Origin: Catajapyx aquilonaris
Taxonomy: Eukaryota
Reading direction: 5' to 3'
Assembly: GCA_000934665.2 (NCBI GenBank)
Contig: KZ537984.1
Coordinates: forward strand, 62,001-126,000
Length of the DNA stretch: 64,000 bases
Shown here piece by piece: positions 12,001-64,000 of this stretch (positions within the stretch are counted from its first letter, which is position 1; each line of letters opens with the position of its first letter). A model generated the notes under the pieces. That model did not search any database. It was not told where the DNA came from and saw only the letters and a list, made by a program, of their open reading frames with translations. Position numbers and translations under genes: made by a program.

Positions 12001-14966
12001 AACCACGTCGAAATGGAGCTTCGTTATGATTAATATACAGGAGAGGGTGTCCTCGCATCTTCAGGAGGGCTTGGAAGAGGATGTGCTGATGGATGGGATG
12101 AAAGCTAAACCCCCCTTCGCTTAATCCTCTGATTATTATCAGTGCACTCTCGCGACCCTTCAACGTACACCAGGGAATTGGAAGTCACTCAACTACAATT
12201 GCACCGCCACGATAATACTGCCTTTAGCACATGGTGAGTGCGTGCGAAATTTTACAGCAAATATTTGATGAAATGAACACAAACAAAGCGCAAGTTCTAA
12301 TACAAACATGTTCACATTCAATATGCTCTAATCATCTTCTAATATGACATATTTTGAAGTTGATGTTGCATGATTTGTTCTTACTTAAAATAATGCTGCA
12401 GCTGCAGGAGTGGCTTTACGACTGTCACAGAAATACTTTTTTTGTTTCGTTATGAGAATTAAACAATCATATAGAAGAAGACAGTAATTAATTACATCAT
12501 TTCATACTCTTCCATGATATTCAACCATTTACTAACACTCATAATAAAATAGTAATGATTATTATAATATGACATATGACGTACCAGCTTGTGGTGAAAT
12601 CCTAATTTTTAAAGTAAAGTCGTTACTGTATTGCCAACTGTTATGACAGTATGCCAGTTTTTAGTATATTACAAGTCACTTTTTTCACTCCTGCATGAGC
12701 CTGTTTTCAGAACAGTGATGCCAAAACCACCCTGTGAGGCCATTACCGAAAGCAAAAAAGAAGAAGAAGAAAAGAGCAATCCCCCTGCAATCACCTGCCT
12801 GAGCATACCTCTACTCGCGTTTAGCAATTAGACTTCTGCCAACATGTTTGTCCTGTACCCTTTTCCGACCACCCAAGCCCAGCTCAGGCCAGGGATCTGA
12901 TGAATTTTGGCCCCCGGGTCCATTTCCCACCCCTTGTTTTCGCACGATCCTGGAACCTTAAGTCCATCACTCCTTCCTGTCCCTCACACGTGTGTCCCTT
13001 TCGGTGGACTCAAACGATGGGAAGGGCCCGTGATGAAAAGAGACCACCGCTGGGAAATGGTAGCCAAGCACCAATTATCGGCAAGCAAAATTTTGGGGGA
13101 AAATGGAGTCTATGTGCGGCACTCCCCCCTCTAATAATAATGTGAAGGGGGGGGGGTGTGATGCTTTGGCTGACCCAAAGTATCCCCCCCCTGTCCCACA
13201 ATAGGCATCACAGAGGGGGGTCCTTGGGCTTTTCCCCCTCGCACAACTTGCCAAATTTCTGCCCATCACTAAAAGTCTAATCGGTCGGACTTAATGAAAA
13301 GCTGGGAGCGACGCGCCGTGTAATTATTCGCAAGAGATGAAAGGCCAGTGCTGTTTCAGAATGGAGCCCTGCTGCTGCAGAATATTGGGAGGTCTGGGGC
13401 GATAAACATCTGACCCGGGATGCTGCTCGGCTCCCCGGCCCTAATTTTGTCTGGCAAAAGTCAATGAGGCTCGTTTTGGGCAAATAGTGCACAAAATCAG
13501 ATAAAATGCACTAGGGTGAAGTTCGCAGCTTGGGCTCAAATCTCTTCCCCGGTGCAGCAGGTATGGGCCTAAAGTAGAAATAATATTTTCTATTTTCACT
13601 GTACAATCCCCTCTGATGTTTAGAAAATAATCTTGGTTCTCGGTAAAATCTCAAGGTGCACGGGAAAGACTGCAGCTGTGGTAACAAATTGATCGTCTAT
13701 GCACTATACAGCAGCGGTTTTCCGTCCATAGGTTTCCAGAAAGGTATTTGGGGTAATGGTTGGCCTACATTAGTCAGGTAAACATTCTAATATTAATATT
13801 GGTAGAACTTATTCTCTGGTGCACAATTCTCACGCTAGAAAAAACATAAACTGGAAAGTGGGTCGCATACTCGCATGGCATGTATCAAGAAATCGGTCAT
13901 GTTGTTTTGTATGATCATGTATGTCATTGGTCAGTATTGCACATGCAGCAGGGTTACGAAAAATTTGTGGAAAATTCATGACAAGAAAAACTGCACTGTA
14001 TATAGAAGAAAAGGTACACTTGCAGTTCCCTTATATCCCCGATGAGAACAGCCCAATATTTCGAGAGCCACGAAAAAGGGGGTTAAAATAAGAAAAAAAA
14101 ACCCTGCAGGGCTTCATCTATTCATTTGCCACGTTGTAAGTCGATAAGTCGATATTTTCAAGAATAGGCTCTTCTTCTACAGAGTGGAAAGTTTCACACT
14201 GGCTTCTTCCTCTATACAGTTGGCTCTAAGGTATAAATCCAGGTTGAGCAAGATTGCAGTTGCTCATTTCAAACATGGTGGCAGCTTAAATGCTAAGAGA
14301 GAAGTGCACATCAGTTTTTCATTGTTCTAACAAATCATGTAACATCCTTTGGCTCGTTTTATTCAAATTAGAGAGCAAGGTTTGGCGTTGTTTCATCAAC
14401 ATTCTCCTTTATTTTGTAATAAACTCGTTTTCTTTAGGCGATTCACTCCCTCTTGTCAAATTTTTTTCTTTCTGCGGTTACCCCCAAACAATCGGCTGGC
14501 AACAGCTGCCCACAATGACACTCGCCACATGACACAGGCTGCAACAGGCCGACATAGCTTTATAATCCACAACGATTGAATCCACATCCCCCTGTTGCTG
14601 GCATCACATGAACGAGAGATACTCCCCACCTGTGTACTCCTGCGGCTATAATTCAGACATGACACGAGTAGGCCTACTCTGTGACTAACATGCCAACTCA
14701 ACACCACAAGCAGAACATGATGCAGTTGACTTAGCAGACCGATTGAATGCAACCCTTGCGCAACTTTTTTTTGTGTGTGTGTGTGTGTGTGCAGACCGGT
14801 GCAGACTATAATCCGTCAATCCTGCCAGCTGCAACTTACAAGCTGTGCCACCTAATCCCCAGCACAATTCAAAAGAAGTATATGTATGCACCCTGGAAAA
14901 TCTGGAGCATCGACATTTGGCGATTTTGGTCCAAAACACCTGCTATAGCATTTTCTGCGACCTTAC

Positions 14967-15140
14967 CTGCTGGGCACAGGGCTGCTGCGGAGATGTGGTG
15001 GCTTCTCAGTCCAGTTACGTCGTGTCGTCTTGACCTCGTCCGAGACCAGAAGATGCGAAGGTCAGCGCAGACTTGCAGCGGTTCGCGAAAAGCGCCAAGG
15101 TGCATCCCGACACGTCCAGACTTGCAAAAAGTTCGCGCGG
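14967..15140 (-). other. Probable non-coding first exon of an unidentified minus-strand gene running toward the left edge
   Basis: Strong donor CAG|GTAAGG on the minus strand at 14967/14966. CpG-rich segment lying head-to-head with TAMM41. No convincing ORF; the 5' end is a guess. Confidence 0.4.
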
Positions 15141-15159
15141 TTTAACTAAAGCGAACAGA

Positions 15160-15460
15160 CGCTGAAAATGGCGGGAAGGGAGAAATGGCGGGAAAATAAA
15201 ATGCGCAAAAAAATTGCATTAATTTATAAACTACAACCCATGTTCGATACCATTAAAATTGCAAAGAATAATTTTCAGCACATCCAGATAATTTAACATT
15301 TTAAACTGCATGCACAGTACAGTACCTGCCGTACCTGCTAACTAGTAATTTAACAAATTATTCCTGCGTCTGTTTATTTTAATTTGTGCTTATTAATAAA
15401 CGAGTTTTAAATTTCTCCGGATTTACCCGCATTTTAAATCGAATCGAATGTGACGTCATC
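15160..15460. promoter_or_regulatory. Probable bidirectional promoter for TAMM41/SWI5 and the leftward transcript
   Basis: Two E2F-type TGGCGGGAA sites (15169-15177, 15186-15194) and a palindromic CRE TGACGTCA (15451-15458), upstream of the TAMM41 ATG at 15566. Confidence 0.5.
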
Positions 15461-15565
15461 ATAACAGCTGCTATTTCTGTTTCGCAAGCAGCTGCGTTTG
15501 TTTCAGCCCGTCCGCCATGTTTGTTTTTTGTTTTGTTTTTTTTTCTCTTGACGATTTGAAGAAGC

Positions 15566-17547
15566 ATGCTGTCCGACACGATTTACCATCGAGTCCTGCA
15601 AAAGCTTCCCCAGTCTGTGTCCTTCGCCTTCGCCTATGGGTCAGGAGTGTTCAGGCAGCTAGGAGAAAACCAGAAGGTGACACTGTACATCCAATGCCAC
15701 GTCTGAAAACAGGGGGCAGAAGTTCAGGGTGTTGATATGCCGGGACTTTAGACATTTGCTGACATTGGTGATCCTTGATGGAAGTGTTTCGTTTGATTTT
15801 AAGATGTAGTCTGTCAACAGCATTGTCATCTCTACTTTTTATACTTACTTTGAATCATGACCTCTGGCAGCTGGGTGGTAAGGAAATAAGAAACTGCCTG
15901 CACACACTGTTGTAGATTGTAGCGTATTTGTCACCTTATTGTGCTAAAACATTTTTTGCCGTAACTTTATTGCGAAATACTAACTGGAGCTGTCTTTCAG
16001 TTTGCTTAAAGGCAATGGAAACTCCAACAAGACCTCCAGGGCAAAGCAGATGTGAGCAGGCAGTTGCGACATTGACGAAACCATTCAAATCTCCATTAAA
16101 CATTGTACGTAAAAGTGAAGTGACTTTGGAGGAAAGGTTGGAGAAGCTTCGGAAACGAGAAGCTGAACTGGACTCTGAGATAGCTGCTTTGGAGTCAGAG
16201 GGATACACGGTAGAAGACAAGAAGGCATATATTGAGGCACTACATGAGTACAATGAGATGAAGGATGTGACGCAGGTGGTCTTGGGGCGTCTGGCCGTTG
16301 CTGAAAATGTTACTGTTAAAGAGCTACACGAGGAATATGGACTTGAAACTAAGGAGTGACCTTGTCTCTATCACAAGTGCTTAGTTATTTTCTACATTGT
16401 TATATAATGTACAGGGACAAATAAATTATTTTCTCAGGTGTCGTAGAACTTGTACTTCAACAATTCACTTTGTAGGAATGTGAGATATTTTATGCATCTT
16501 AGGGACAGGTACTTTATTTTTATTTCTTTTGAGTGTCGTGGCAGTGGGAAGTAAGAGGATCTTTCCATTTCAGGCCAACATGATTGACTTCATTCTAGCT
16601 GTCGACAGACCTAGTCAGTGGCACCGTCTCAACATAGCCAGCAATCCTAACCACTACTCCTTCCTGAGGTGGATGGGAGCAGATTTTGTAGCCCGATACC
16701 AAGAGTCTGGTGGAGCCAAGATCTACTACAACACCCTTATCCCACATGAAAATACGGTAGGCCAAATTCCGGCTCCCAAGTTACACAATGCTTACTTCCT
16801 ACAAGAGATTTTAGTTTTGCAGGTCTGTAAATAGTAACTTCTGTTATTATTTTCTAGCTGGTAAAGTATGGTGTGATATCAACCTCTGCCCTGATAACTG
16901 ACTTGCTGGACTGGGACTGTCTCTATGTAAGTGGCCGCCTGCACAAACCAGTATTGGTGTTGAAGACACCAGAGTCCGAGGCCTTACAGGTAGCGCTCCG
17001 CCACAACTTGGAAAGTGCTCTTCACGCATCATTACTAATGCTGCCAGAATCTTTTTCGGAACGTGACCTGTACATCACCTTAGCTAGATTGTCCTACATG
17101 GGGGATTTCCGCATGATATTTGGTGAGAAGAAGACCAAAGTTTCAGACATTGTGGATGCTCAGTCCCTTCAGTTCAGAGAGCTGTACTTACCTCTCCTGA
17201 AAGAGATGAGTATGATGGTTGAGTTGAATGTTGAGCAGGAAAAGGGAGAGCAGGATACTAGTCCAGAGGCACGGATGCATCATTACAACATGCTGCCCAA
17301 GACGCTTCAGAAAGCCCTTGTAAAGGAGTGGAACAAGGATGGAAAATCCAGGGATGTAGAGGAGGTGATGCATGCTGCTGCATATGACATGGACTCTCAC
17401 GACCTGATCGAGAAAGGTATCCGTGATGTAGTATTTCCTGGTAGTACTGTCCAAAGTTTAAAGTCAATCTTGGCGGCAGGGTTGTGGAAGTCATTGAGGT
17501 ACAGTGGGCGAAAAATTCGTAAAATGATGCGTTCTTCTCGCAAGTGA
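15566..17547 (+). CDS. TAMM41: Mitochondrial phosphatidate cytidylyltransferase (Tam41/Mmp37 family)
   Basis: Exons 15566-15676 (MLSDTIYHRVLQKLPQSVSFAFAYGSGVFRQLGENQK), 16574-16756 (ANMIDFILAVD..HYSFL..IYYNT) and 16858-17547 (LVKYGVIS..DLLDW..LYVSGRLHKPV..LSYMGDFRM). All junctions are GT-AG, phase 0. AATAAA near 17573. Confidence 0.95.
16015..16359 (+). CDS. SWI5: DNA repair/meiotic recombination protein SWI5/Sae3 homolog, nested in TAMM41 intron 1
   Basis: 114-aa ORF from ATG 16015: a coiled coil followed by YIEALHEYNEMKDVTQVVLGRLAVAENVTVKELHEEYGL, matching the Swi5 family motif. Upstream TACTAAC (15978-15984) and acceptor CAG at 16000; AATAAA near 16420. Confidence 0.92.
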   Translation: METPTRPPGQSRCEQAVATLTKPFKSPLNIVRKSEVTLEERLEKLRKREAELDSEIAALESEGYTVEDKKAYIEALHEYNEMKDVTQVVLGRLAVAENVTVKELHEEYGLETKE

Positions 17548-18070
17548 TGATTGTTTGTATTGTTGCTGTAGTAATAAAGTTTTAATTTTTGAATACCTTT
17601 GCACAGGAAGTACCGTTTTACGCAGCTCCTCTTTACGCAGTTTCACATTAACGCTGGTTTTAAAATTACATTTGATATTTTTTTTAACGAAATTTTTTGA
17701 AAAATTTGAAGATAAAAGATCACTGCAACACTTCTGGGTCCAAACACACAACCGTAAAGACTCTTCTTTTCTTTTTCCTGGTAACTTGTGGCAGGTTCTG
17801 TCGATGTATACAGTACCATACTGTTGGTCTCAGCACTCCCCGAAGCACTCTAACTGTTTTTAAATACACAGCGTGTACTGAAGTTCTTGCCAAAATAAGG
17901 AAATGAGCCATCAGAACTCGATTGCACTCAACCTGGAACCTCCCATTAATCAATGTTTCAAATATTCTGCATTAAAAGCAGCAAATTACGAAATTAGTAC
18001 TGCCTATGAAAAAATTTTGTATTTTGGAACCTATCTCATTTACTTACATTATAATTTAGTCTTGTTTTAC

Positions 18071-18376
18071 ACCGAAGCAGTAGTGGTGTAGTGGTATGGT
18101 GTCCGACTGCTAATCGGGAGGTCCTGGCTTCGAATCCCGGAGGCCGGCGACCCTGACCATGGTTTTCTGTGGTTTCCCATGGTCCTTGCAGGATAATTCC
18201 GGGGTCGTTACCGTAATATAGGCCACAGCCGCCTCCTTCCTTCCCTTTCCCTGCTTCATTCCGGTGATGAGAAAAATAGTAAAAATGGAAGAGTTCCAGA
18301 CAAAAAATTGGGAGAAATCCCCCCCTAGGAAAGCCTGTAGGCTGATAATGGGGTGTCAAATTAATAAAAAAATTAA
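18071..18376 (+). mobile_element. tRNA-derived SINE, family A, copy 1
   Basis: A-box TGGTGTAGTGG, B-box-like GCTTCGAATCC, body GGTTTTCTGTGGTTTCCC...GGCCACAGCCGCCTCCTTCC, A-rich tail. 15-bp TSD TTAGTCTTGTTTTAC at 18056-18070 and 18377-18391. Second copy at 29.7-30.0 kb. Confidence 0.9.
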
Positions 18377-18735
18377 TTAGTCTTGTTTTACGCCGATTCA
18401 CTTTACGCCACATTTTTATGGTACCAATTAATGGCGTAAAACGGGTACTTAAGTGTATAATTGTCATTTTCGGACCAAGTAAGGCAGTAATGGATGCCAG
18501 TGAATTGTACGAACATAAAATATTACATGTCATATCACCTGATGTGGTACATAAGAAGACAATGAAAATGTGGTGCATTTTTAAAAATCTGCATCAGTGA
18601 ATGCACACATTACGGACAAAATATGTATTTATTTGTGTTATTTCTTAAAATTACAAGTCATGCAATAATAAGTGCATGAGAGTGCAAGGTGCTGAAATCA
18701 GAATGAGTTCCAGAAACAAGAAGCTTTATGACATT

Positions 18736-21700
18736 TTAGAAAAATTCCTTGCAAGTTGGTATCCACTTGCTTTCTTCCTCGCCATAGATTTTGGCCCTCA
18801 AGACTCGGAGTCTGGATAAGGCTTCATCCCAGTCCAGGTATCCGGCTGACAGGAATCGCTCACTCCCGTCATCTTCAAAGGCCTCTCTCCCATGCAGCAC
18901 TCGTCGGTTGTCAAAGGCTGCCATGTCACCCTCACGCAGCTTCAGACTGATCATATTATTGTCACGATGAAGGATAGAATCAAACAGCTTCATTGCTGCA
19001 TAGAAAGCTTCGACTTTCTCAGGCTCAAGGTCTAGGAATGAATCCCGCTGGGCAGCGCTCATGTTAACACGTTGCGTCTTTCCATCACGATTGAGCCTGA
19101 AATTAAGCAGTAAAGAAGTATTTTTTGAAACTTGCCACGAATAAATTTGACAGTATGGTATTATGTGGTTTGCAGGTCATTAGTCAGCCTCGGATGTAAT
19201 TTAAATTGTGTTACATGGAGTGAATCATGCTAATGTTGTGGAGGTGACTTACTCTATGAGAGGTGTGTTATTGATTTTGTAGAATGGGATAGAATCAGCA
19301 CCAAGATCACAAAAGTAGACTGGTGTGGTGGTCAGGATGTGGTATTCCTCAGGGTGTTGATACTTGAGCTCTCGAACAGCAGAAAACGCATCAGAAAATG
19401 TTGTTTCCCCACCAGCACCAGTGCATTGCTTTATGCAGTGCAAGATCTGAATCTAGGTGAGAAAAGGTGCAAATGAAATTGTAAGACTTCCACAGATTCA
19501 ATGGACTTACTCCTGGGGCATATTCATAATATGGAAGATCCGTGTGAAGGCTCAGCTTGGCATTGGTGTAGGCGATGTTGCTTGGGTCATGCTTGGAATG
19601 GACGGTGAACTCGACAAGGCTGTGAGCATAAGTTCAATCGTTTTTATTAGGTACTGATGAATTAGAAGGGCAAGAATTCAGCGCAATAGCTTACTTGTAA
19701 TGTGTTTGCCTCATGAACCCCACTCGCTGCGAGAGCCTCTTCACCTGTCCTTCCTTTTGAGGTGCACTAGTAATGAGGGTGAACCCATATTTCTCCAAGT
19801 TCTCCAGCCATTTGAGCAAGGTCTCATTGGAGCTCATTAGTTCATTGAAGTCACAGGAGGGCAGTTTGTCAGGCTGCCCCATCTCCGCACCCCAGAAGTG
19901 CATGGGAGCCTTGTACTCAGCCCTTCTCTTTGCCCTGGCATCCACGTTAAATGCCCTTCTTGACAGCCACTCGGGTCGGAATGAGCTCTTGTGTCCATCT
20001 GGCCATACCAGTTTCAGCTTCCCAGAACCAAGCCATGCTTGAGGTGAAGCAGAGTGGATATCCAAGTCTTGCATCAGGAGCTTACGTCCTACTGTAGGTG
20101 ATGGGCAGCAGTGGTGGCACTGACAATTGTCACGAAGCCACGCAAAAGGGTAGACATCCTTGGTGGCATCTGACCAAGTTATGCACACCATTCGAGCCTC
20201 TTTGTCCACTGACACGCCCTCTATTATTTTGTCGCTTTCCACACTGGCTGTTTGGGCTGGAAAAAATGGTTTATTTAAGTTTTATTATGCATGTTATAAT
20301 CAAAAATTGACTTTGGTATGGAAAGAAAACCCTCCCATAAGCACACTGCAATGACATACAAACTTGATTCATAGGCTTGCATACCACTGGTCATGTACTA
20401 AAATCCTGAATGGTAATTTTATATCAGACCAATTCCAAGCGAATACCTTGTCAGTAGTGTTTTGCTTTCAGTGCCATGCTGATTATTTATCAAAGTTTAT
20501 GAACTCTTGTAGTATACAGTATTTTTATAGCATTGTGGTAGGATCTGATATCAATAGTTAGACAACATAGGGTCTACTGTCATCTCTTTCCCTTTTCTTA
20601 TCATTACAGTCCGAAGATCCATACGCACGTTCATGGTTCACCCACTCAACCTTACATGCCAGGTGTCAATACTGACATAGATTGTTCTGTATTTACTTAC
20701 ATGGTCATTAGACGATGAACTTTATATCAGTGATGAACAGAAAGGACTTTCCAACGGCATGAAACTGGAATTCACTAGTTATGAAGTAAGCAAATCAGCG
20801 GGATTTTTTCCCCTGGTGATGTCATACTCTGATTGTGGTAGTTGATCGTGATGCATACCCAAATTAGTGCTGGTGGTTTACGATGCAGATATGTAATCTG
20901 TAAGCTCACACCAGTCATCAAGGAAGTAAAAGTGGAATGTTCTTAAATTGCATATAGTATGTGTTCAAATCTAGATTAGAGTCCCATTTTGTGTTGTCTC
21001 ATCAGTGAGCACATCATATCACAAAATATAAATGTAGATAACCAGAAGAAATAAATTAAGAAACTTTTACATTACTCTAGCTCAACTTTGCACTCCAAGT
21101 AAACAGACCTCAGATTTCTCTGTACATTGAATTACTCTTGAACTAACATTACTGAGACAACATCAGTGATATTACATCATTGGATAAATAGTAATCTATT
21201 TTTCATGATAGGTCAGTTGATTCCATATGGTTTAAGTGGGCCTACAGATGTTTCACATCAGTGCATTTTGATATCAAGAGATATGATGCCATGGAAAAGC
21301 TTAATGCCACTACCTACATCACAATTATTTTCTGATAGGAGGTGAAAAGTATTGACTGTGTACTTCATTTCCAGCCTAAAACTAGAATTTATAAAGTTAC
21401 TCAATCTCAACCTGCTGGTCCACAAGTACAAAATAATGCTGTAAAATACTTATGGGGGAAAAAAATCAAGGTCATGATGGTGGCCACCAGGCCACATATC
21501 CCAAATGTTTAGGACGGTGTATTTCTAAAACTTCCTAAGTACTGCACCACTTCCTATGATGAGGTTCCAATCAAGGGCCGAGTGGTGAGGTGTGTGGGGC
21601 CGAGTGAGAAAGTGACAGAATTCTACTGTACTTCCCACCAATTGCTTAGCATCAACGTCCCATGCTAAAAGGGGGAATATTGATGAGAAATCGTGAGAAA

Positions 21701-24497: not shown

Positions 24498-27302
24498 CTA
24501 ATTAAAAAAGGGAAGATCCTCTGTTCCTTCCAGCTTGCACTTCAGGACACGTGTCTTGGACCTTACTTCATCCCAATCTATGTATGCAGTCTCAAAATGA
24601 CGGCTAGTGGTGGCTGCTTCATTGAAGGCCTCCCGACCATGCAACACACGCATGTTGTCAAATGCAAGCATCTCACCTGCAAATGAAAATAATGTGAATG
24701 GAAAGTGTAATGCACATGCAGACAAAATATGACAAGTGCTTGGTAACTTACCACCTGCAAGCTTAAAGCGAGCTTTGTTCTTCTTGTCATTGCAGAGATC
24801 ATGGTAAAGCTTCATAGCTTCATACATGGGCTGGACCAGCTCCAGACTCACACTGAAGAATGAGTCGCGCACCTGGTTGTTGAAGTTTATCCTCTCTGGA
24901 GCTCCTTCTCTGTTCAGCCTGCATTTAAAGTGTTAGCATTAAGTAATATTTGATGCTTGAAAACTCAAAAATTGAATCAGGAAAGGCACATACTGAATTA
25001 TTGGAGCACGATGGATCTTGTAGTATGGAATAATGTCAACACCAACATCATGGAAATCAACTGGCACAGTTGTGAGGAGGTGGAAAGCACGAGGGTGTAA
25101 ACGGCGAAGCTGCCTTGCGACAAAAAAACCATCGACCAAGTTGTTCTCGCCTCCTACATCTGACTGCTGAATGCAGCGCAGGAATTGCACCTGTGTTTTA
25201 AAAATGCACAATGAGATTAATTCTGAACCCTTCTTAATACGAGTAACACTCTTACCCCGGGCATGTATTCATAGTAGACCAGATCAGTGTGCAAGCCAAG
25301 TTCAAGATTGCTGTCTGACAAGTTGTTTGGTTCATGAGTCGACATCACAATATCTTCCCCAATTCTGTGAAAACAAGATAACAAAATTCATGAGTGAACC
25401 CCTTGAACCCAATCGAATATCCCATTCCGAAATAAATTACGAACAAATATTGAACCAATACAAGTGGATCAATCACAATACTAGTAGTATGAACTATTAT
25501 CATAATATTACAAAACAAAAAAGTTACATGCTCTCATTCTAGTAACTCTCATTAAATTTTCCCAGCCATATAACGCAAAATTTTTTCTAAATAATTACTA
25601 GACCGGTACTATACTATACTAAAACTTATATTCTCAGTAAATACTGCCTAATGTTGGGCCAGTCTTCGTTATAACTCACCCATAATGACTGGGCTTGAGG
25701 AATGCAATCCTACTTCCCAAGAAGTTGGTCTGCCCCTCGAGTGGAGGCACGTTCCTGATTAGGGTCAATCCAAAGCGCTCCAGATCTTCCAGCCAGGTCA
25801 GCATGACAGAATCAGAATTTATCAATTGGGAAAAGTCAACTGTGGGGATTTTGTTGTTCCTATCGAGGTCATCTGCACCCCAAAGGGTAAGAGGGCCACG
25901 CTGGGTACGGCGCCTCTTCTCCTGGGCAGCAGGATTAAAGGCTCTCTGGACAAGCCATTGAGATTCATACGTGCTACGGTGCCCATCGGGCCAGGTCACC
26001 TCCAGAAATGACCCAGCATTTAATATCTGTAAGGCAGGTTATTCTGAGTCACATTCCTTAGCCCATTATTACGATTCTTATTTCGGTTACAATGTCTGTA
26101 CCACCCAATCTCAATGGTTACATGTAAGGGTTCAGGTCAATTTTAACCAATCATGTGTTTTAATCTCACAATTGCTTAAGCTTCCATGATCTCACATAAG
26201 CAATACAAGGGCACTGTATAATCAAGGTTTCAGTAACATTTGAGATCTATAAACCCTGAGCTACAAGATAGCCTGCTTGCAATAATGAAAAGTTGGGTCA
26301 CTGAGGTGAGTGTGGCAGGAAGCCATAAAAGATATCACTTTTATGTCTACTTTGGTCAACAGAGGTGGTTAGTAACATGTGACATTGGATTACACAACTC
26401 CAAAATACTGTAGATGGTACTTTGCATGATAATAGCACAAGCCGTTATCATTGCTCTGACTTGTCAAGAACTACAGAATTAACATTATTGCTTAATATTT
26501 AAAATGCAGTCTAGTGATCATATCCACTCTAGATAATTATGACTCAGCCAAAACATGCAATTATAAGTACGAAATATTTTTCTTCACCACGCAATTCCAG
26601 AAGTGCATTTCTAACCAAGATGACAACTGATAACAAGTAGTTGATATATGTAAATGCAATAAAACTTAAATCATACCTCAACCGCCTCTGGATGAACTTT
26701 GGGATCCAAGTCCTTCATGAGATGCTGGCGGCTCTGAGATGTTTGTAGGAAGCATTTTGGGCACTGGCAGTTGTCCCTGAGCCACACAGATGGATAGCGA
26801 TCCTTATTTCCATTGGCCCAGACTACCTCCAACATGCGGTTCTTTGCATCCAGGGAAACTGCACTCAGCTTCTTGCCATTGGACGGATTTGGTGCTGCAC
26901 CTGTAAACAAAGAAAACATTATGAAAATATTATCCAAAGCCTTATGTAAGGAAGCTTAAAAGAATCCAGTAATGTCTGGAATAATTTGCCAAATGATTAC
27001 GATATTCTGTGGTGTTAAACATCTGTTGAGATGTTTAGCAATGCACTAGTTATGTAACAGACATGTAGCTTACACTTTTCCTGGGGTAGAGCACTCTGGT
27101 GCCTAACCGGAGTATGGCAGGTTGCTGATATGGGCACATCCTTCACAATGGTAGTTGACAAGACTCGTTGCAATGCCCTGCCCCTCTGGAACTCGCACAG
27201 TACATTAGACCTTTTGGATAACCCAGACAAGTCTTGAATGCTGCCAAGACTTGAGTGGATTCTGTAGATCCCTCTGCGGAGAGTGTGAAAACTCAAGAGC
27301 AT
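24498..27302 (-). CDS. Gamma-butyrobetaine dioxygenase-like paralog B, divergent substrate pocket
   Basis: Exons 27302-27074, 26900-26677, 26026-25680, 25364-25256, 25190-24994, 24918-24752 and 24676-24498, phases consistent with no stops. WLRDNCQCPKC..WPDGH; LHTDLVYYEY; RINFNNQVRD; FDNMRVLHGREAF; RHFETAYIDWD. Confidence 0.9.
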
Positions 27303-31467: not shown

Positions 31468-33636
31468 CTACTTGGAGCACCCTTCAACATCCAACCCATG
31501 GAAAGTCTGCAAATGCTCAGACAAATCCTCCAGCAACACAAATGTATTGCTACACTGATCACAACCCAATGCTACAGGAACCTCTGCTCCAACTTCAACT
31601 TGAGACACAGTAGTGCCCAAACCAACTCTGACTCCGTCCAAGTCGTCATCTGACATAGCCTCTTCTACAAGACCAACCTCAGCTAGACTCTGATCTGACA
31701 CTCGTACAGGTCGCCCAAAATCAGTCTCTGCTTCTGGTGGTGTTATGTCCAGCACTCCTCCAGAAACATCAAGAGAGACAAACACATCAGGCAGTAAGGG
31801 TGTTAGTTCAGATCCCGGAAGGAGAACCAGGTTTGAGACTGTCTTTCCATCGGGGCCAACCAGCTGGACAAGTTGTCCAACTGGCTCTTCATAATCCTCC
31901 CATGCAACACAGTCAGGAGCTGTAGTGGCAACTGGCTCCTTTCGCTCAATCCGAACCATCCTTTTGGAGGTGGATGCAGCCTCCTTGCTGCGTGCTTCTC
32001 TCTCACTGCGGCGCTGGTGAGACTCCAGGTGCTTCAGAAGTGACTGACGGTCAAAGAAGGGTTTCTGGCATATGTAGCACTCAAAATTCTTGGAGCCTAC
32101 ATGGCGCTTGCGATGGGCATACCAATTCGATTTGAATCCGGTGCGGTACCCACATATGGTGCATTCAAATGGTTTGTTACCTAAGGAGAAAATAAAGAAA
32201 AAGAAATATTAACTTGAAATGTTTACCTTTTTTATCAGTTTAAAAAATACCTCTTTCTCCATTGGATTACAAAATATGACTCTAACTTAGCTCAAAAAGT
32301 ATGCACTCATTGTTGTAAATTCCAACAACCCACCTGAATGCAGGTTAGCATGGTAGACCAAATGCCTCTTAAGCCGGAAGCACTTCCCACATTCGGTGCA
32401 CTGGTAAGGCCTTTCTCCAGTGTGCACCTTTGCATGAGCATTTAGATGTGAGACAGTGAGGTAGGAGCGTCCACAGTCCAGGCATTGGTGAGGCCTTAAA
32501 CCAGAGTGTGATCGCTGGTGCTTCTCCATGTATGACTTGGTCTTGAAACGTTGTCCGCACACCCCACACTCATGTGGTTTCTCATCCAAATGACTGCGAT
32601 AGTGGGAGCGCATGTACGATTCATTAGGAAACATCTTTGGACATCCAGGCTCCAGGCACTTCACAGTCTTGTCAGTGTGGACAGCAGACAGGTGGCACTT
32701 CAATGAGTGCTTGTCTGAAAAGATTCACAACAAATGAATTCACTCAAGGTCTTGCAAGCAGAGTGTCATTCAAAAATTGGACCTCTCCACATCTCCAAGT
32801 ATGAAGTAAATTTGATCTCTCACAATATCTCTCTCATCAACCAACCGTCATACTGTATGATTACATCTGGGTTGAGCACCCAACATAAATATGAGCCTGT
32901 GTAAGATTCACACCTCTCATCTTCTTGTCACATATGGGGCAGGGAAGTAACTTTTCCCGGGACATCTTGTGAACCCTTTTAATGTGAACTTCCAGTGAGG
33001 ACTTGTGTGCAATTTGTTTCTGGCATATTGGGCAGTGGTGATCTTTAACAGCCTTGTGTACCAATTGATGGTTCTTCAGTGATCTGAAAAGGCATGGAAT
33101 AATTGTATAACAAAGGATATCACTCAGAAAAAAAAGGCAATTTTTCTGAACCCACTTGGGAATGTAGAAACATTTCCCACACTCCTCACACTTAAAGTTC
33201 TTCTCTTGTATGTGCTTGGTGATGATGTGGTGCTTCCGAGACACTCTGCTGCTCAACCTCAGGCCACAAACCTCACATTGGTACTTTTTGGCTGCAAATA
33301 GATTACATTGTGAAGTCATCGTTGCCACATTGCCAGTTATAACGTATGTGCTTTACATTCATCCTGTCCATCATCTGTCGATTTGCAGGAAATCACATCA
33401 TTGGCTGTTCTGCTGGCAACCGAATCTCTGCAAGTAAAGTTTACATAATTACGCTGCGATTACCATGCAACTTCATGACTTTTTCCAGCGAAGGTCACAT
33501 ACTTGGAAGCTTTCAAAATTCCAGAGACAGAATTGTCACATTCTTTATCGTTACTCTTCATATCAGTGGTGCTATCACAATCAGAATAATCAGACATTTC
33601 ATCCGGTTCATCCGCTAGTTCCTCCTTCATATCCAT
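31468..33636 (-). CDS. C2H2 zinc-finger protein (about 11 fingers, acidic N-terminus)
   Basis: Exons 33636-33503, 33427-33357, 33291-33156, 33083-32914, 32714-32334 and 32180-31468. Ten clustered C2H2 fingers with HTGERPY/DEKPH/SGNKPF linkers plus one isolated C-terminal finger (CDQC..HLQTFH). Start codon and first two exons are less certain. Confidence 0.85.
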
Positions 33637-56351: not shown

Positions 56352-59300
56352 ATGCGTCTGCTGACTGTCCTGAAGAGTAGTGTCAATAAGTTTGTAGTTG
56401 GAGTCAGACGACCTTTGACCTTGAGGTCATATTCATTGGCGGCCAGACTTCAGGGAGAAGACGGGATGAGACTGGAAGGAATCAAGGTCTGCTGGGATGC
56501 GGCCAAGTGGAGCCCGAAGGACATACATGAGCAGGCGGACAGACTCATCGAGAGTACGAGGGAAGCTTACGACAAGGTGGCCAGTGTGCCGGAAGATCAG
56601 GTCAACTTTGAGACTGTCATCAGGGTAAGGAGAGGTCATAATGGGTCATAACGAGGTGTAGAAGGTTGTACCAGGTCATACCTGGTCGTAATGGGTAGTA
56701 GAAGATCTCAGAAGGCCATACTGGGTCATGAGGCTGTCAAGGGGTTGTAAAATGTCATAACAGGTCATATTGGGTCATGAATACTGGGACATGAGGGTGT
56801 CAAAAGTCATAACGGTCTGTAGAAGGTTGTAGCAGGCCATAATAAGTTGTAGAAGAGCTAAGAAGGCCACACCGAGTCATATCAGGTCATGAACAAGGTC
56901 ATGAAGGGTCAAAATGGGTTGTAGAAGATCTAGGACGGCCATACTTGGTCATACTGGGTCATGAGGGGGTCAAGGGGTTGTAGAAAGTTGTAAAATGTCA
57001 TAACAGGTCATATCAGGTTATGAATACTTGGTCATGAGGGTGTCATAACAGGTTGTAAAAGATCACAACAGGTCATAAGGGATCAAAATGGTTGTAGAAG
57101 AGCTAAGAAGGTCATACTGGGTCATGAGGGTGTCCTAATGGGGTTGTCCTAATGGGGTTGAGAAGGTCATAATGGGTTGTAGAAAAGCCAAGAAGGCAAC
57201 ACTTGGGCATATAAGGTCATGAGCGAGGTCATGAGGGTGTCATAATGGGTTGTAGAAGGTCGTAACAGATCATACTGGGTCATAAGGTGTCAACGAGTCA
57301 TACGCTTCTACAAAACATATTGTTGCAGGCGTTGCAGGACATCCATTGTGAGATGTACACGTTAGGCTCGCCGCTTAACATTCCGCAGCATGTGAGCACT
57401 GATAAAGCGGTGAGAGACGCCAGCAGCGAGGCCGAGAGGAAGATGGAAGATTTTGAGGTGGAGATGAGCATGCGGGTCGATATTTTCAAGAAGGTGGTTG
57501 CGTTCCAAGAGAAGTGCGGGACTGACGGGTTGAAGCCTGAGGCCAAACGGGTGGTGGAGCGGCTTGTGAAGCTTGGAATGCGCAATGGGTTGCATCTTGC
57601 GGAGGAGACACGCCAGAAGGTGAAGGATATTAAGAAGAAGCTGTCCGATCTTAGTATCACCTTTCAGCGGAATCTGAACGAGGTGGATACGGAGCTTCTG
57701 TTCAGTGATGACCAATTGGCTGGTCTGCCCCAGGAGTTTATAGATGCACTTGACAAGGCGGAGGATGGAAAGAGGCGGGTCACGCTCAAGTACCCGCACT
57801 TCTTTCCGGTTACACGCAAGTGTAAGGTCGCCTCCACCAGGAAGGCGCTGGAAACGGCGTATCAGTCAAGGTGCATTAAGGAGAACACGGCAATCCTGGA
57901 GGAACTGATCCAGCTTCGGCAGAAGCAGGCCGATCTTTTAGGTAAGTCATTAACAGTGTCGAACTGTTCAACCATACATTCATGTTTCTTGTTGAAGGTT
58001 ATCCGAACCACGCAGCATACATCCAAGAGATGCGGATGGCCAAGAACCCAGCGACAGTGGACAAGTTTCTGCAAGAGCTGGCGACGAAACTGAAGCCCCT
58101 GTGGGAGAAGGAGCGGAAGGTGATGATGGCTTTTAAGAAGGAGGAAGCCTTGGAATCCAGCGAGGACCTTGGGGACGACCTATGCTTCTGGGATCTCCGC
58201 TACTACATGTGCATGGTGGAGGAGAAGCTGTACGCTGTTGACAAGAACAAGATGAGGGAGTACTTTCCTCTGGAGACAGTCACCAAGGGACTGCTTGAGA
58301 TATACCAGGAGTTGCTGGGGCTCAAGTTTACGGAGCAGAAGGAAGGGGACAAGTGGCATGAGGATGTCAGGATTGTGAGTTTGACATCACAGAATATTGC
58401 GGCTCTGACTTCTCACATGCCGCCTCTAATTTCTTGCAGTTCAAAGTGGAAGACGCATCGTCTGGTGCTTTTCTGGGCTATTTTTTCCTGGACTTGCACC
58501 CACGAGATGGCAAGTATGGGCATGCTTGTGTGTTTAAGCTCCAGCCTGGATGCCTCTCGCCTGATGGAAAAGGAAAGCAGGTCCCGGTCGCAGGCATGGT
58601 GACCAACTTCACCCGCCCCACTGCCAGCCGTCCAGCACTGTTGGACCATGATGAAGTGGAGACGTACTTCCATGAGTTTGGGCATGTTATGCACAACATG
58701 TGCAGTGAGGCGGACTATGCCATGTTCTCCGGAACCCGAGTCGAGAGGGACTTTGTGGAGGCTCCATCGCAAATGCTGGAGAACTGGGTGTGGGAGGAGG
58801 AGCCGCTCAGAAGGATGTCCGGACACTTCAAGGTCTGTGAAGCACGTTATCCGCATAACACACCTTTTAACACATTTCTCCACAGGATGGCTCCCCAATC
58901 CCAGCCGAGACTCTCCAGAAGTTGATCCAATCCAAGAAGGCAAACGCAGGGGCATTCAACTTGCGCCAGGTGCTTTTGGCCACCTTTGACCAGATGATCC
59001 ACCGCAGCGGAGGTCCTATTGACACCCAGAAGGCTTTCTCTGACCTCTACCGTGACCTGGTTGGAGTGGAGACCATCCCAGACACCAACATGCCTGCCAA
59101 CTTCGGTCATCTTGCTGGAGGTTACGATGCACAGTACTACGGATACCTGGTGAGATCTCAGCTTGATTAACATCTGGCACATATTACTAAAAATTATATT
59201 CTGTTGCTTTTTTAGTGGAGCGAGGTGTTCAGCATGGATATGTTTGCGGCCCGCTTCAAGAGCGAAGGAATAATGAATCCAAAGGTGGGCATGGATTACC

Positions 59301-63101: not shown

Positions 63102-64000
63102 GATACGGGAGGGAGTCGGGAAGAATGTTCGATTGAATCCAGCCAGCGCTTCGATCCTTTCCTGTTGGACGCCCGGGACTTCATGAAGGAGAAGGAGCAG
63201 ACGGCCAGGTAGATAGCCCAGGGTGGGAAAAGGACATGCAGCAACAGAAGGCCGAAAGTAAAGCGCATGGTTCAGGCAGCATGTGATAATCAAAATAATT
63301 AATTATTAGAACGTACAACCATAATTTGCATGAATTCACACAGTGCAAGTACCACAATATTGTGTCTTTTCAGATCTGAACTTGTAAGACCACGTTGTAT
63401 CTTCAAGTTGAGCAAACGATGCGCGCCGACTGCTAAACCTTGGAGTCATCATGATTTTGTGGGGCGCTTGAAGACGTTCAGTCCGATTAACTGGCCTTAT
63501 AAGCGTGTATCGCCGATTGAGTGTGCGATGAGAGGATGGGTTATCTACGGGATGAACCGGATTACTTGCATTACCTGTAAGGGTCGCATCTACGGAGGGA
63601 TTATGGACACCAAGTACACAGACCTTTGTAAGAAGCTGCTGCAATGTTATGTTTAAAAATGGTTTTCAATTTTTACTTACTGGCTGTTCAATTTCAGATG
63701 AACAGTGGGTCCAGAAACTGCGATCTAATCTCCAAGAGCGGCATGAACTTTGCTGTCCATGGCGAGTGAACCCAACGAGGCTTGAGTTTGAGTATATCTT
63801 TGACCCAGGGAAGGTCCCGCAGTTAGGATTCATTAGAAGGCTCAAGAAGTTTTCACAAGTCAATATGCTTCCAGAGTTGTCAGAAGAATTCTTGGAGTCC
63901 ATCTCTGAAGATACGGAAACAATCAACTCAATTTCTTCCAGACTTGAGAGTGTTCCTGAAGAAAGGGTGGCTCTCATTCTTGCGTTATGTGGGTGGGAGG
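63093..64000 (+). CDS. ZC3HC1: C3HC zinc-finger protein NIPA/Rsm1/Pml39 family, 5' part (truncated by window end)
   Basis: Exons 63093-63208, 63374-63627 (PWSHHDFVGRLKTF..W..SPIECAMRGW..CITC) and 63698 to the edge (HELCCPW..LALCGW). Phases consistent. Confidence 0.85.

Follow-up and report, generated by a model that had tools for sequence, protein, structure and literature searches.

The 64,000-nucleotide (nt) stretch of Catajapyx aquilonaris DNA analysed here (contig KZ537984.1, positions 62,001 to 126,000; referred to as the window, with positions counted from its first letter) raises the question of how a complete SWI5 gene can be expressed from within an intron of another gene on the same strand. 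The SWI5 open reading frame (ORF; 16015-16359, + strand) lies between coding exons 1 and 2 of TAMM41, with its ATG 339 nt from the end of TAMM41 exon 1. Contigs from one public sequencing run join the exon 1 donor both to TAMM41 exon 2 and to the exon carrying SWI5, and SWI5 is therefore an alternative terminal exon behind TAMM41 exon 1. We consider it probable that the two genes are a host and nested pair sharing the host's first exon, that the arrangement is old, and that SWI5 is made through bypass of the TAMM41 start codon.

An alternative terminal exon behind TAMM41 exon 1

The features of the locus are as follows, with the evidence for each in brackets.

15566-15676, + strand: TAMM41 coding exon 1, common to both mRNA forms (Pfam, contigs)
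15636-15662, + strand: second AUG in exon 1, +1 frame, opening an 8-codon ORF that ends in TAG (sequence)
15677-16000, + strand: intron spliced out of the SWI5 form (donor GT at 15677; joint 15676>16001, GT..AG, in a contig)
15877-15878, + strand: extra donor on paper, GGTG/GTAAGG (sequence only)
16001-16009, + strand: TAMM41-frame tail after the splice, TTT GCT TAA (in silico splicing)
16001-16416, + strand: SWI5 terminal exon as far as the contig reaches (446-nt contig, 0 mismatches)
16010-16011, + strand: second AG, an acceptor on paper at 16012 (read from the letters)
16015-16359, + strand: SWI5 coding sequence (ORF list, Pfam, alignment)
16420-16425, + strand: AATAAA, poly(A) signal of the SWI5 form (sequence; 3' end expected slightly beyond)
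16574-16756, + strand: TAMM41 coding exon 2, 61 codons (Pfam; joints 15676>16574 and 16756>16858)
16858-17547, + strand: TAMM41 coding exon 3, 229 codons and stop (Pfam; contigs 16857-16949 and 17003-17498)

The host gene belongs to the Tam41/Mmp37 family, the Pfam profile Tam41_Mmp37 (PF09139) being covered by its collinear exons. Exon 1 opens with the ATG at 15566 and runs for 37 codons to 15676, ending in phase 0 at the donor AAG/GTGACA; it matches positions 2-30 of the profile (E 1.4e-6; score 28.4 bits, cut-off 24), and is followed by exon 2 (positions 35-93, E 1.1e-20) and exon 3 (positions 96-322, E 2.6e-70). Joined in silico, the exons encode a TAMM41 protein of 327 amino acids (aa), the same length as decapod TAMM41 records. 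The closest relatives of exon 3 are also from decapods (56-59% identity), followed by branchiopods (52-56%); an ESM Atlas search with exon 3 gave no usable match.

The nested ORF is a single exon encoding 114 aa and a stop. It matches the Pfam Swi5 family (PF07061) with E 1.6e-20 and 73.4 bits (gathering score 22.1), residues 38-112 aligning to positions 1-79 of the 80 in the profile. All eight columns that are invariant in an alignment of the window protein with 24 relatives are retained (H77, N80, K83, D84, Q87, G91, A94 and T100), and the frame is free of stops and shifts; by full-length domain score, conserved residues and intact frame it is a member of the Swi5 family. Swi5 proteins act with an Sfr1/Mei5-type partner in a complex that stimulates Rad51/Dmc1; no gene for such a partner was found in the window. 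Upstream of the SWI5 exon there is a TACTAAC (15978-15984), a sequence with only four copies on the two strands of the window taken together, two of them on the + strand. It stands 16 nt before the CAG ending at 16000, with a short pyrimidine run between the two, and an AATAAA follows the ORF. The coordinates and sequence features that the first-pass annotation had described for this nest all held up on checking.

Splicing was examined with the contigs of one public run (X1), compared over window positions 14000-18500; no run recorded as RNA matched. Three joints are present in these contigs, 15676>16001, 15676>16574 and 16756>16858, and all have GT..AG introns. A 446-nt contig consists of 28 nt of exon 1 and positions 15999-16416, connected via 15676>16001, and a 305-nt contig carries both 15676>16574 and 16756>16858. 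The four contigs over the genes match without a single mismatch (across 123, 418, 277 and 496 nt), and the three clean intron skips indicate that X1 behaves as complementary DNA. Both junction contigs open with the last 28-30 nt of TAMM41 exon 1 and are thus two branches of one splice choice, as the first-pass annotation had supposed in proposing SWI5 as an alternative last exon of the TAMM41 unit. It had named SWI5 RNA that never includes TAMM41 exon 1 as the finding that would speak against this; the 15676>16001 contig contains exon 1 sequence. The transcripts of two distinct genes therefore carry the same exon and use the same donor. The contig with the SWI5 exon has no onward joint and ends at 16416, 4 nt before the AATAAA, and 16417-16573 is skipped by the contig with the 15676>16574 joint. 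A separate X1 contig covers exon 1 including its AUG, from 15554 (about 15550) to 15676, and is broken at a T-rich repeat.

Contigs give no starts, ends, levels or rare forms, and depth was not used to rank the two mRNAs. Joints at the acceptors 16012 and 15916 or at the donor 15877, and an unspliced SWI5 leader, are all absent from the X1 contigs, from which rare forms drop out. A third splicing route, from an extra donor at 15878, had been suggested; the sequence GGTG/GTAAGG is indeed present at 15877/15878, although no contig uses it.

The description of the common promoter as an E2F-site promoter, also made from the sequence at first pass, is weak. The strict motif TTTSSCGC occurs seven times in the window against 4.2 expected, a number reached by 16 of 100 shuffles, and its sole match near the locus (15188-15195) is about 370 nt upstream of the TAMM41 ATG. 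Two copies of AATGGCGGGAA lie 18 nt apart within 15080-15200, and a palindromic TGACGTCA is located at 15451-15458, ~110 nt ahead of the ATG; all of these may be promoter elements.

The TAMM41 records of other arthropods vary around the first exon. Three decapod records (P0153, P0159 and P0160) are 289-aa forms, two of them labelled isoform X2, that stand beside 327-aa forms; the one examined, P0153, begins in exon 2 and has no exon 1 residues, so alternative TAMM41 5' ends are annotated in relatives. In a Macrothrix record (P0165), ~15 additional residues sit precisely where exon 1 meets exon 2, an apparent case of retained or alternative splicing at the donor expected to serve SWI5.

Reaching the SWI5 start codon

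In silico splicing of 15676 to 16001 closes the TAMM41 frame within two codons (TTT GCT TAA), and the TAMM41 start then opens an upstream ORF (uORF) of 39 codons with its stop at 16007-16009, 5 nt before the SWI5 AUG, just as had been read at first pass. The spliced mRNA has three AUGs up to and including that of SWI5.

AUG 15566 (TAMM41), A at -3 and C at +4: opens the 39-codon uORF
AUG 15636, C at -3 and G at +4: opens an 8-codon ORF, +1 frame, that is closed within exon 1
AUG 16015 (SWI5), G at -3 and G at +4: SWI5, 114 aa

Because no exon 1 AUG is in the SWI5 frame, the third AUG, at 16015, is the SWI5 start. A stop downstream of the last exon junction normally spares an mRNA from nonsense-mediated decay, and since the uORF stop lies after the sole junction this mRNA should not be a target for decay. 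The SWI5 AUG would most likely be reached by leaky scanning, possibly with some reinitiation. The available text of PMC5972666 describes a minimum intercistronic distance for ordinary reinitiation, together with a Drosophila complex, DENR-MCT-1, that promotes reinitiation regardless of distance.

A parallel is offered by the Drosophila genes sloth1 and sloth2, where, in the accessible part of PMC9681215, 5 nt likewise separate the upstream stop from the AUG that follows, and ribosomes get to the second ORF by leaky scanning. They differ in that both ORFs are complete, encode related peptides and are carried on a single form of mRNA (PMC9681215, same part), whereas the uORF here is a 39-codon TAMM41 stub made by splicing, and the context of the TAMM41 AUG is not obviously weak. 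A true dicistronic mRNA was considered and rejected, as the upstream ORF comprises 37 TAMM41 codons plus two and the SWI5 form lacks the remainder of TAMM41.

A Daphnia-like contig with the same layout, and rival explanations

Scanning metagenome contigs with a Swi5 alignment confirmed 175 stretches; the 80 best loci were retained and searched with the window TAMM41, its exon peptides and 120 TAMM41 proteins. One of the 80 loci has a TAMM41 match, and this is the locus with the best Swi5 match, a 1637-nt contig (L001). In L001 an ATG at 264 opens 56 codons that run to a donor, GAG/GTGAGA, at 431/432, and 54 of the 56 residues are identical to residues 1-56 of a TAMM41 protein that UniRef names as Daphnia longispina, which continues with exon 2 sequence that L001 lacks. 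An ORF with a Swi5 domain (1065-1577, Pfam E 5e-18) follows on the same strand, 640 nt downstream of TAMM41 exon 1. As the contig stops without exon 2, that exon should lie beyond its end, which would place SWI5 inside intron 1 in this genome too. The best acceptor candidate is a pyrimidine-rich tract with AG at 1068-1069 (cutting at 1069/1070), and a phase-0 join of exon 1 to 1070 would read TAA at once, the same outcome as in the window.

The SWI5 proteins of L001 and the window share 45% identity, and the window TAMM41 is nearest to those of decapods and then branchiopods; on these comparisons the two appear to represent distant pancrustacean-like lineages. Since the order in both is TAMM41 exon 1 and then a single-exon SWI5, before exon 2, the arrangement looks old. 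An origin of SWI5 as a retrocopy was considered; the gene is a single exon in the window and in L001, although no remnant of an A-tail follows 16425.

The position of the SWI5 start in L001 appears to differ from that in the window. Ahead of the first in-frame ATG of the Swi5 ORF (1248), 61 codons are free of stops. Five longer relatives, of 167-185 aa, conserve this stretch and its RxNRPFKSP motif, and their initial Met falls close to the position equivalent to L001 1065. A conserved part without an ATG of its own implies that the start codon should lie in an upstream exon. Exon 1 of L001 has only two ATGs, that of TAMM41 at 264 (A at -3, G at +4) and one at 412-414, which lies 20 nt short of the donor and is read in the +1 frame; a join to 1070 would put the latter in the Swi5 frame, with 175 codons uninterrupted. 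All four cladoceran TAMM41 N-termini examined have His-Gly at the spot of the embedded ATG, at which the eight non-cladoceran N-termini covering the region place Leu, Ile, Lys, Ala, Glu or Thr in front of Gly. The cladoceran His-Gly is a hint that fits an embedded ATG, with the qualification that His has two codons. We also note an out-of-frame ATG at 1228 whose 15-codon ORF (1228-1275) overlaps the ATG at 1248, and an AATAAA (1239-1244) inside the Swi5 ORF, both of which argue against 1248 as a real start.

Our preferred explanation for the window is that a single promoter just upstream of 15550 would give rise to both mRNAs. Use of the donor at 15676 with exon 2 (16574) gives the 327-aa TAMM41, a mitochondrial cytidine diphosphate diacylglycerol synthase, and its use with the acceptor at 16001 brings in an exon with the whole 114-aa SWI5 ORF, which the AATAAA at 16420 would end. 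On the SWI5 mRNA the TAMM41 AUG would open the 39-codon ORF and ribosomes that skip it would make SWI5, with reinitiation perhaps adding to leaky scanning, and the expected outcome is an output of SWI5 that is low and tied to TAMM41 transcription. A further-reaching version is that the locus has been obligately shared since before the branchiopod and window lineages split, that SWI5 lacks a separate promoter and depends for its production wholly on programmed bypass of the TAMM41 AUG, and that the cladoceran SWI5 start is embedded in the +1 frame of exon 1. We put this forward tentatively, as possible and rather doubtful; if true, L001 would have a short dual-coding stretch in which the guest start is out of frame within the host exon and reachable only by leaky scanning.

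Several observations weigh against sharing of the first exon with bypass of the host AUG, or limit how far it reaches. X1 is the only run to match, comes from one study with the library type unrecorded and may share its source with the assembly, and its contigs cannot link a 5' end to a junction, so the common start site is putative. The TAMM41 AUG has an A at -3, an adequate context that limits leaky scanning, and the 5-nt spacer is short for ordinary reinitiation by the distance requirement described in the available text of PMC5972666. L001 ends 60 nt after the Swi5 stop with TAMM41 exon 2 not within it, and its splice is predicted from sequence alone. Finally, no TAMM41 match was found in the other 79 of the 80 Swi5 loci (E<=1e-3 with the 120 queries, E<0.7 with the exon peptides); these are not counter-examples, because no close relative of either the window or L001 is among them.

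Among the rivals, the one to which we give most weight, while thinking it unlikely, is that SWI5 mRNAs start past the TAMM41 AUG, within 15569-15646, and are spliced from the shared donor, in which case there would be no uORF, SWI5 would use the first good AUG, and the two genes would have a promoter region and donor in common and not a start codon. The SWI5 contig has only the last 28-30 nt of exon 1, the overlap at a graph branch, and so has no tie to AUG 15566, and the decapod isoforms that start in exon 2 point to 5' end variety in relatives. On the other hand, one contig does start at about 15550, take in the AUG and cover exon 1 up to the donor, and no separate promoter signal was identified; the sole candidate SWI5 start upstream of the conserved N-terminal part in L001 is in exon 1, which fits either model. 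Somewhat less probable again is that the exon 1-SWI5 RNA is mainly regulatory or a by-product, intronic splicing and polyadenylation serving to truncate TAMM41 transcripts, with any functional SWI5 coming from a minor transcript initiated in the intron. A third AUG placed 5 nt behind a 39-codon ORF is normally poor for translation (PMC5972666, available text), as this would predict. However, the SWI5 ORF is intact, at 73.4 bits and with every invariant Swi5 column kept, and a distant Daphnia-like genome also keeps this layout with its Swi5 ORF undamaged, which speaks for selection on an arrangement that is productive; an intron-initiated SWI5 RNA is absent from the X1 contigs, which a rare one could escape.

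The in-frame fusion proposed at first pass, in which the acceptor at 16012 would attach the 37 N-terminal residues of TAMM41 to SWI5 in the manner of Su(var)3-9/eIF-2gamma, fares worst. The join is in frame and open on paper, giving a 152-aa chimera, and in FlyBase the members of 10 gene pairs and one triplet have a start codon in common in the same manner (PMC4528330, available text). No contig shows the junction, however, the observed joint using the upstream CAG at 16000 and not the AAG at 16011; the phase-0 join in L001 meets a stop at once; and no Tam41-like N-terminus was found by phmmer and blastp, with the TAMM41 protein and exon 1 peptide as queries, in 152 Swi5 relatives (the best 150 of 604, and the two matches of a word-based protein search with SWI5 alone). 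We regard a chimera as highly improbable.

Comparison with other shared loci, and the neighbouring genes

Loci of related design are known. The accessible portion of PMC4528330 describes Su(var)3-9 of insects as an unrelated conserved gene that is thought to have transposed into the intron of a housekeeping gene, eIF-2gamma, on the same strand, sharing its promoter and start in an insect-specific arrangement. As with TAMM41 and SWI5, the promoter-proximal exon of the host and its donor are used by both genes, alternative splicing selects the product, and the arrangement is kept over a large arthropod clade (PMC4528330, same portion). In that locus, however, the proteins have their start codon and 80 in-frame N-terminal residues in common (PMC4528330, as available). 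The window locus lacks such a shared start and in-frame N-terminus, because TTT GCT TAA ends the host frame two codons past the junction and SWI5 is read in a different one; the host start is here that of a uORF, and SWI5 has an AUG of its own.

The FlyBase survey in the available text of PMC4528330 treats same-strand nesting as unremarkable. It flags 130 genes as sharing a promoter and non-coding 5' exons, and a class of 'Genes with CDS overlap' includes the pairs and triplet noted above, which share a start codon and a few N-terminal residues (PMC4528330, same text). Pairs of the former class resemble TAMM41/SWI5 in that transcripts of two distinct genes have a common 5' exon and donor; they differ in that the shared exons are non-coding for both genes (PMC4528330, same text), whereas the one here codes for part of the host protein and serves the guest as leader. 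TAMM41/SWI5 falls between the two classes.

At the cholinergic locus the exon shared by ChAT and VAChT is non-coding and both products act in one pathway, whereas the exon shared here carries the host start codon and the products have no known common pathway. The loci are alike in that the whole nested ORF is in one exon, inside the host's first intron and on the same strand, that alternative splicing yields the mRNAs of both genes, and that the arrangement is conserved, in the cholinergic case from nematode to mammals; ChAT/VAChT differs in having multiple promoters (PMC3053374, in the text available). Nesting of the cholinergic type is present in the window and in L001. No paper in the library searched names both SWI5 and TAMM41, and literature searches on Swi5 or Tam41 together with nesting, bicistronic genes, Daphnia or crustaceans listed none on the pair, with supplements outside the search. 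The TAMM41/SWI5 locus thus joins a known kind of gene sharing, to which the predicted translational route would add a twist.

Few unrelated conserved genes are known to share a first exon, and the locus is a further case, documented by splice junctions, in which the host start codon is turned into the uORF of the guest and the level of a recombination mediator is tied to transcription of a mitochondrial lipid gene. If it is as old as the two lineages suggest, it would be a rare genomic character for crustacean phylogeny, as Su(var)3-9/eIF-2gamma is for insects, and a natural test bed for how ribosomes reach an AUG 5 nt past a 39-codon ORF. The same age may explain why SWI5 is missing from crustacean gene sets. 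Gene predictors rarely call a same-strand ORF inside an intron, and no crustacean or insect SWI5 is among the 120 listed of 974 matches, which is a hint only. Chelicerate and myriapod SWI5 genes do carry separate annotations.

A very high-copy repeat lies just downstream of TAMM41 (18077-18378), where the summed depth of X1 contigs is ~15,000 as against 6-16 over the neighbouring gene, and where there are many mismatching contigs and loose ends with a tRNA-like GGTTCGAATCCCGG motif. ARAGORN finds no tRNA in 17500-19000 and Rfam gives no match in 14000-19000 at E<=0.1; the repeat looks like an expressed element of the short interspersed element type. Convergent to TAMM41 are ORF pieces with TauD and GBBH-like_N domains (18736-20281 and 24498-24932, - strand) that suggest a dioxygenase of the trimethyllysine or gamma-butyrobetaine hydroxylase type, the second TauD piece, ~5 kb further on, suggesting either a tandem second copy or more exons. 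Three adjoining ORFs with C2H2 zinc fingers (31468-33352, - strand) are probably exons of one zinc-finger gene. Pieces of Peptidase M3 in successive frames (57266-58925, + strand) read as the exons of a gene of the oligopeptidase type, and near the end of the window there is a zf-C3HC (NuBaID N-terminal) piece (63303-63653, + strand).

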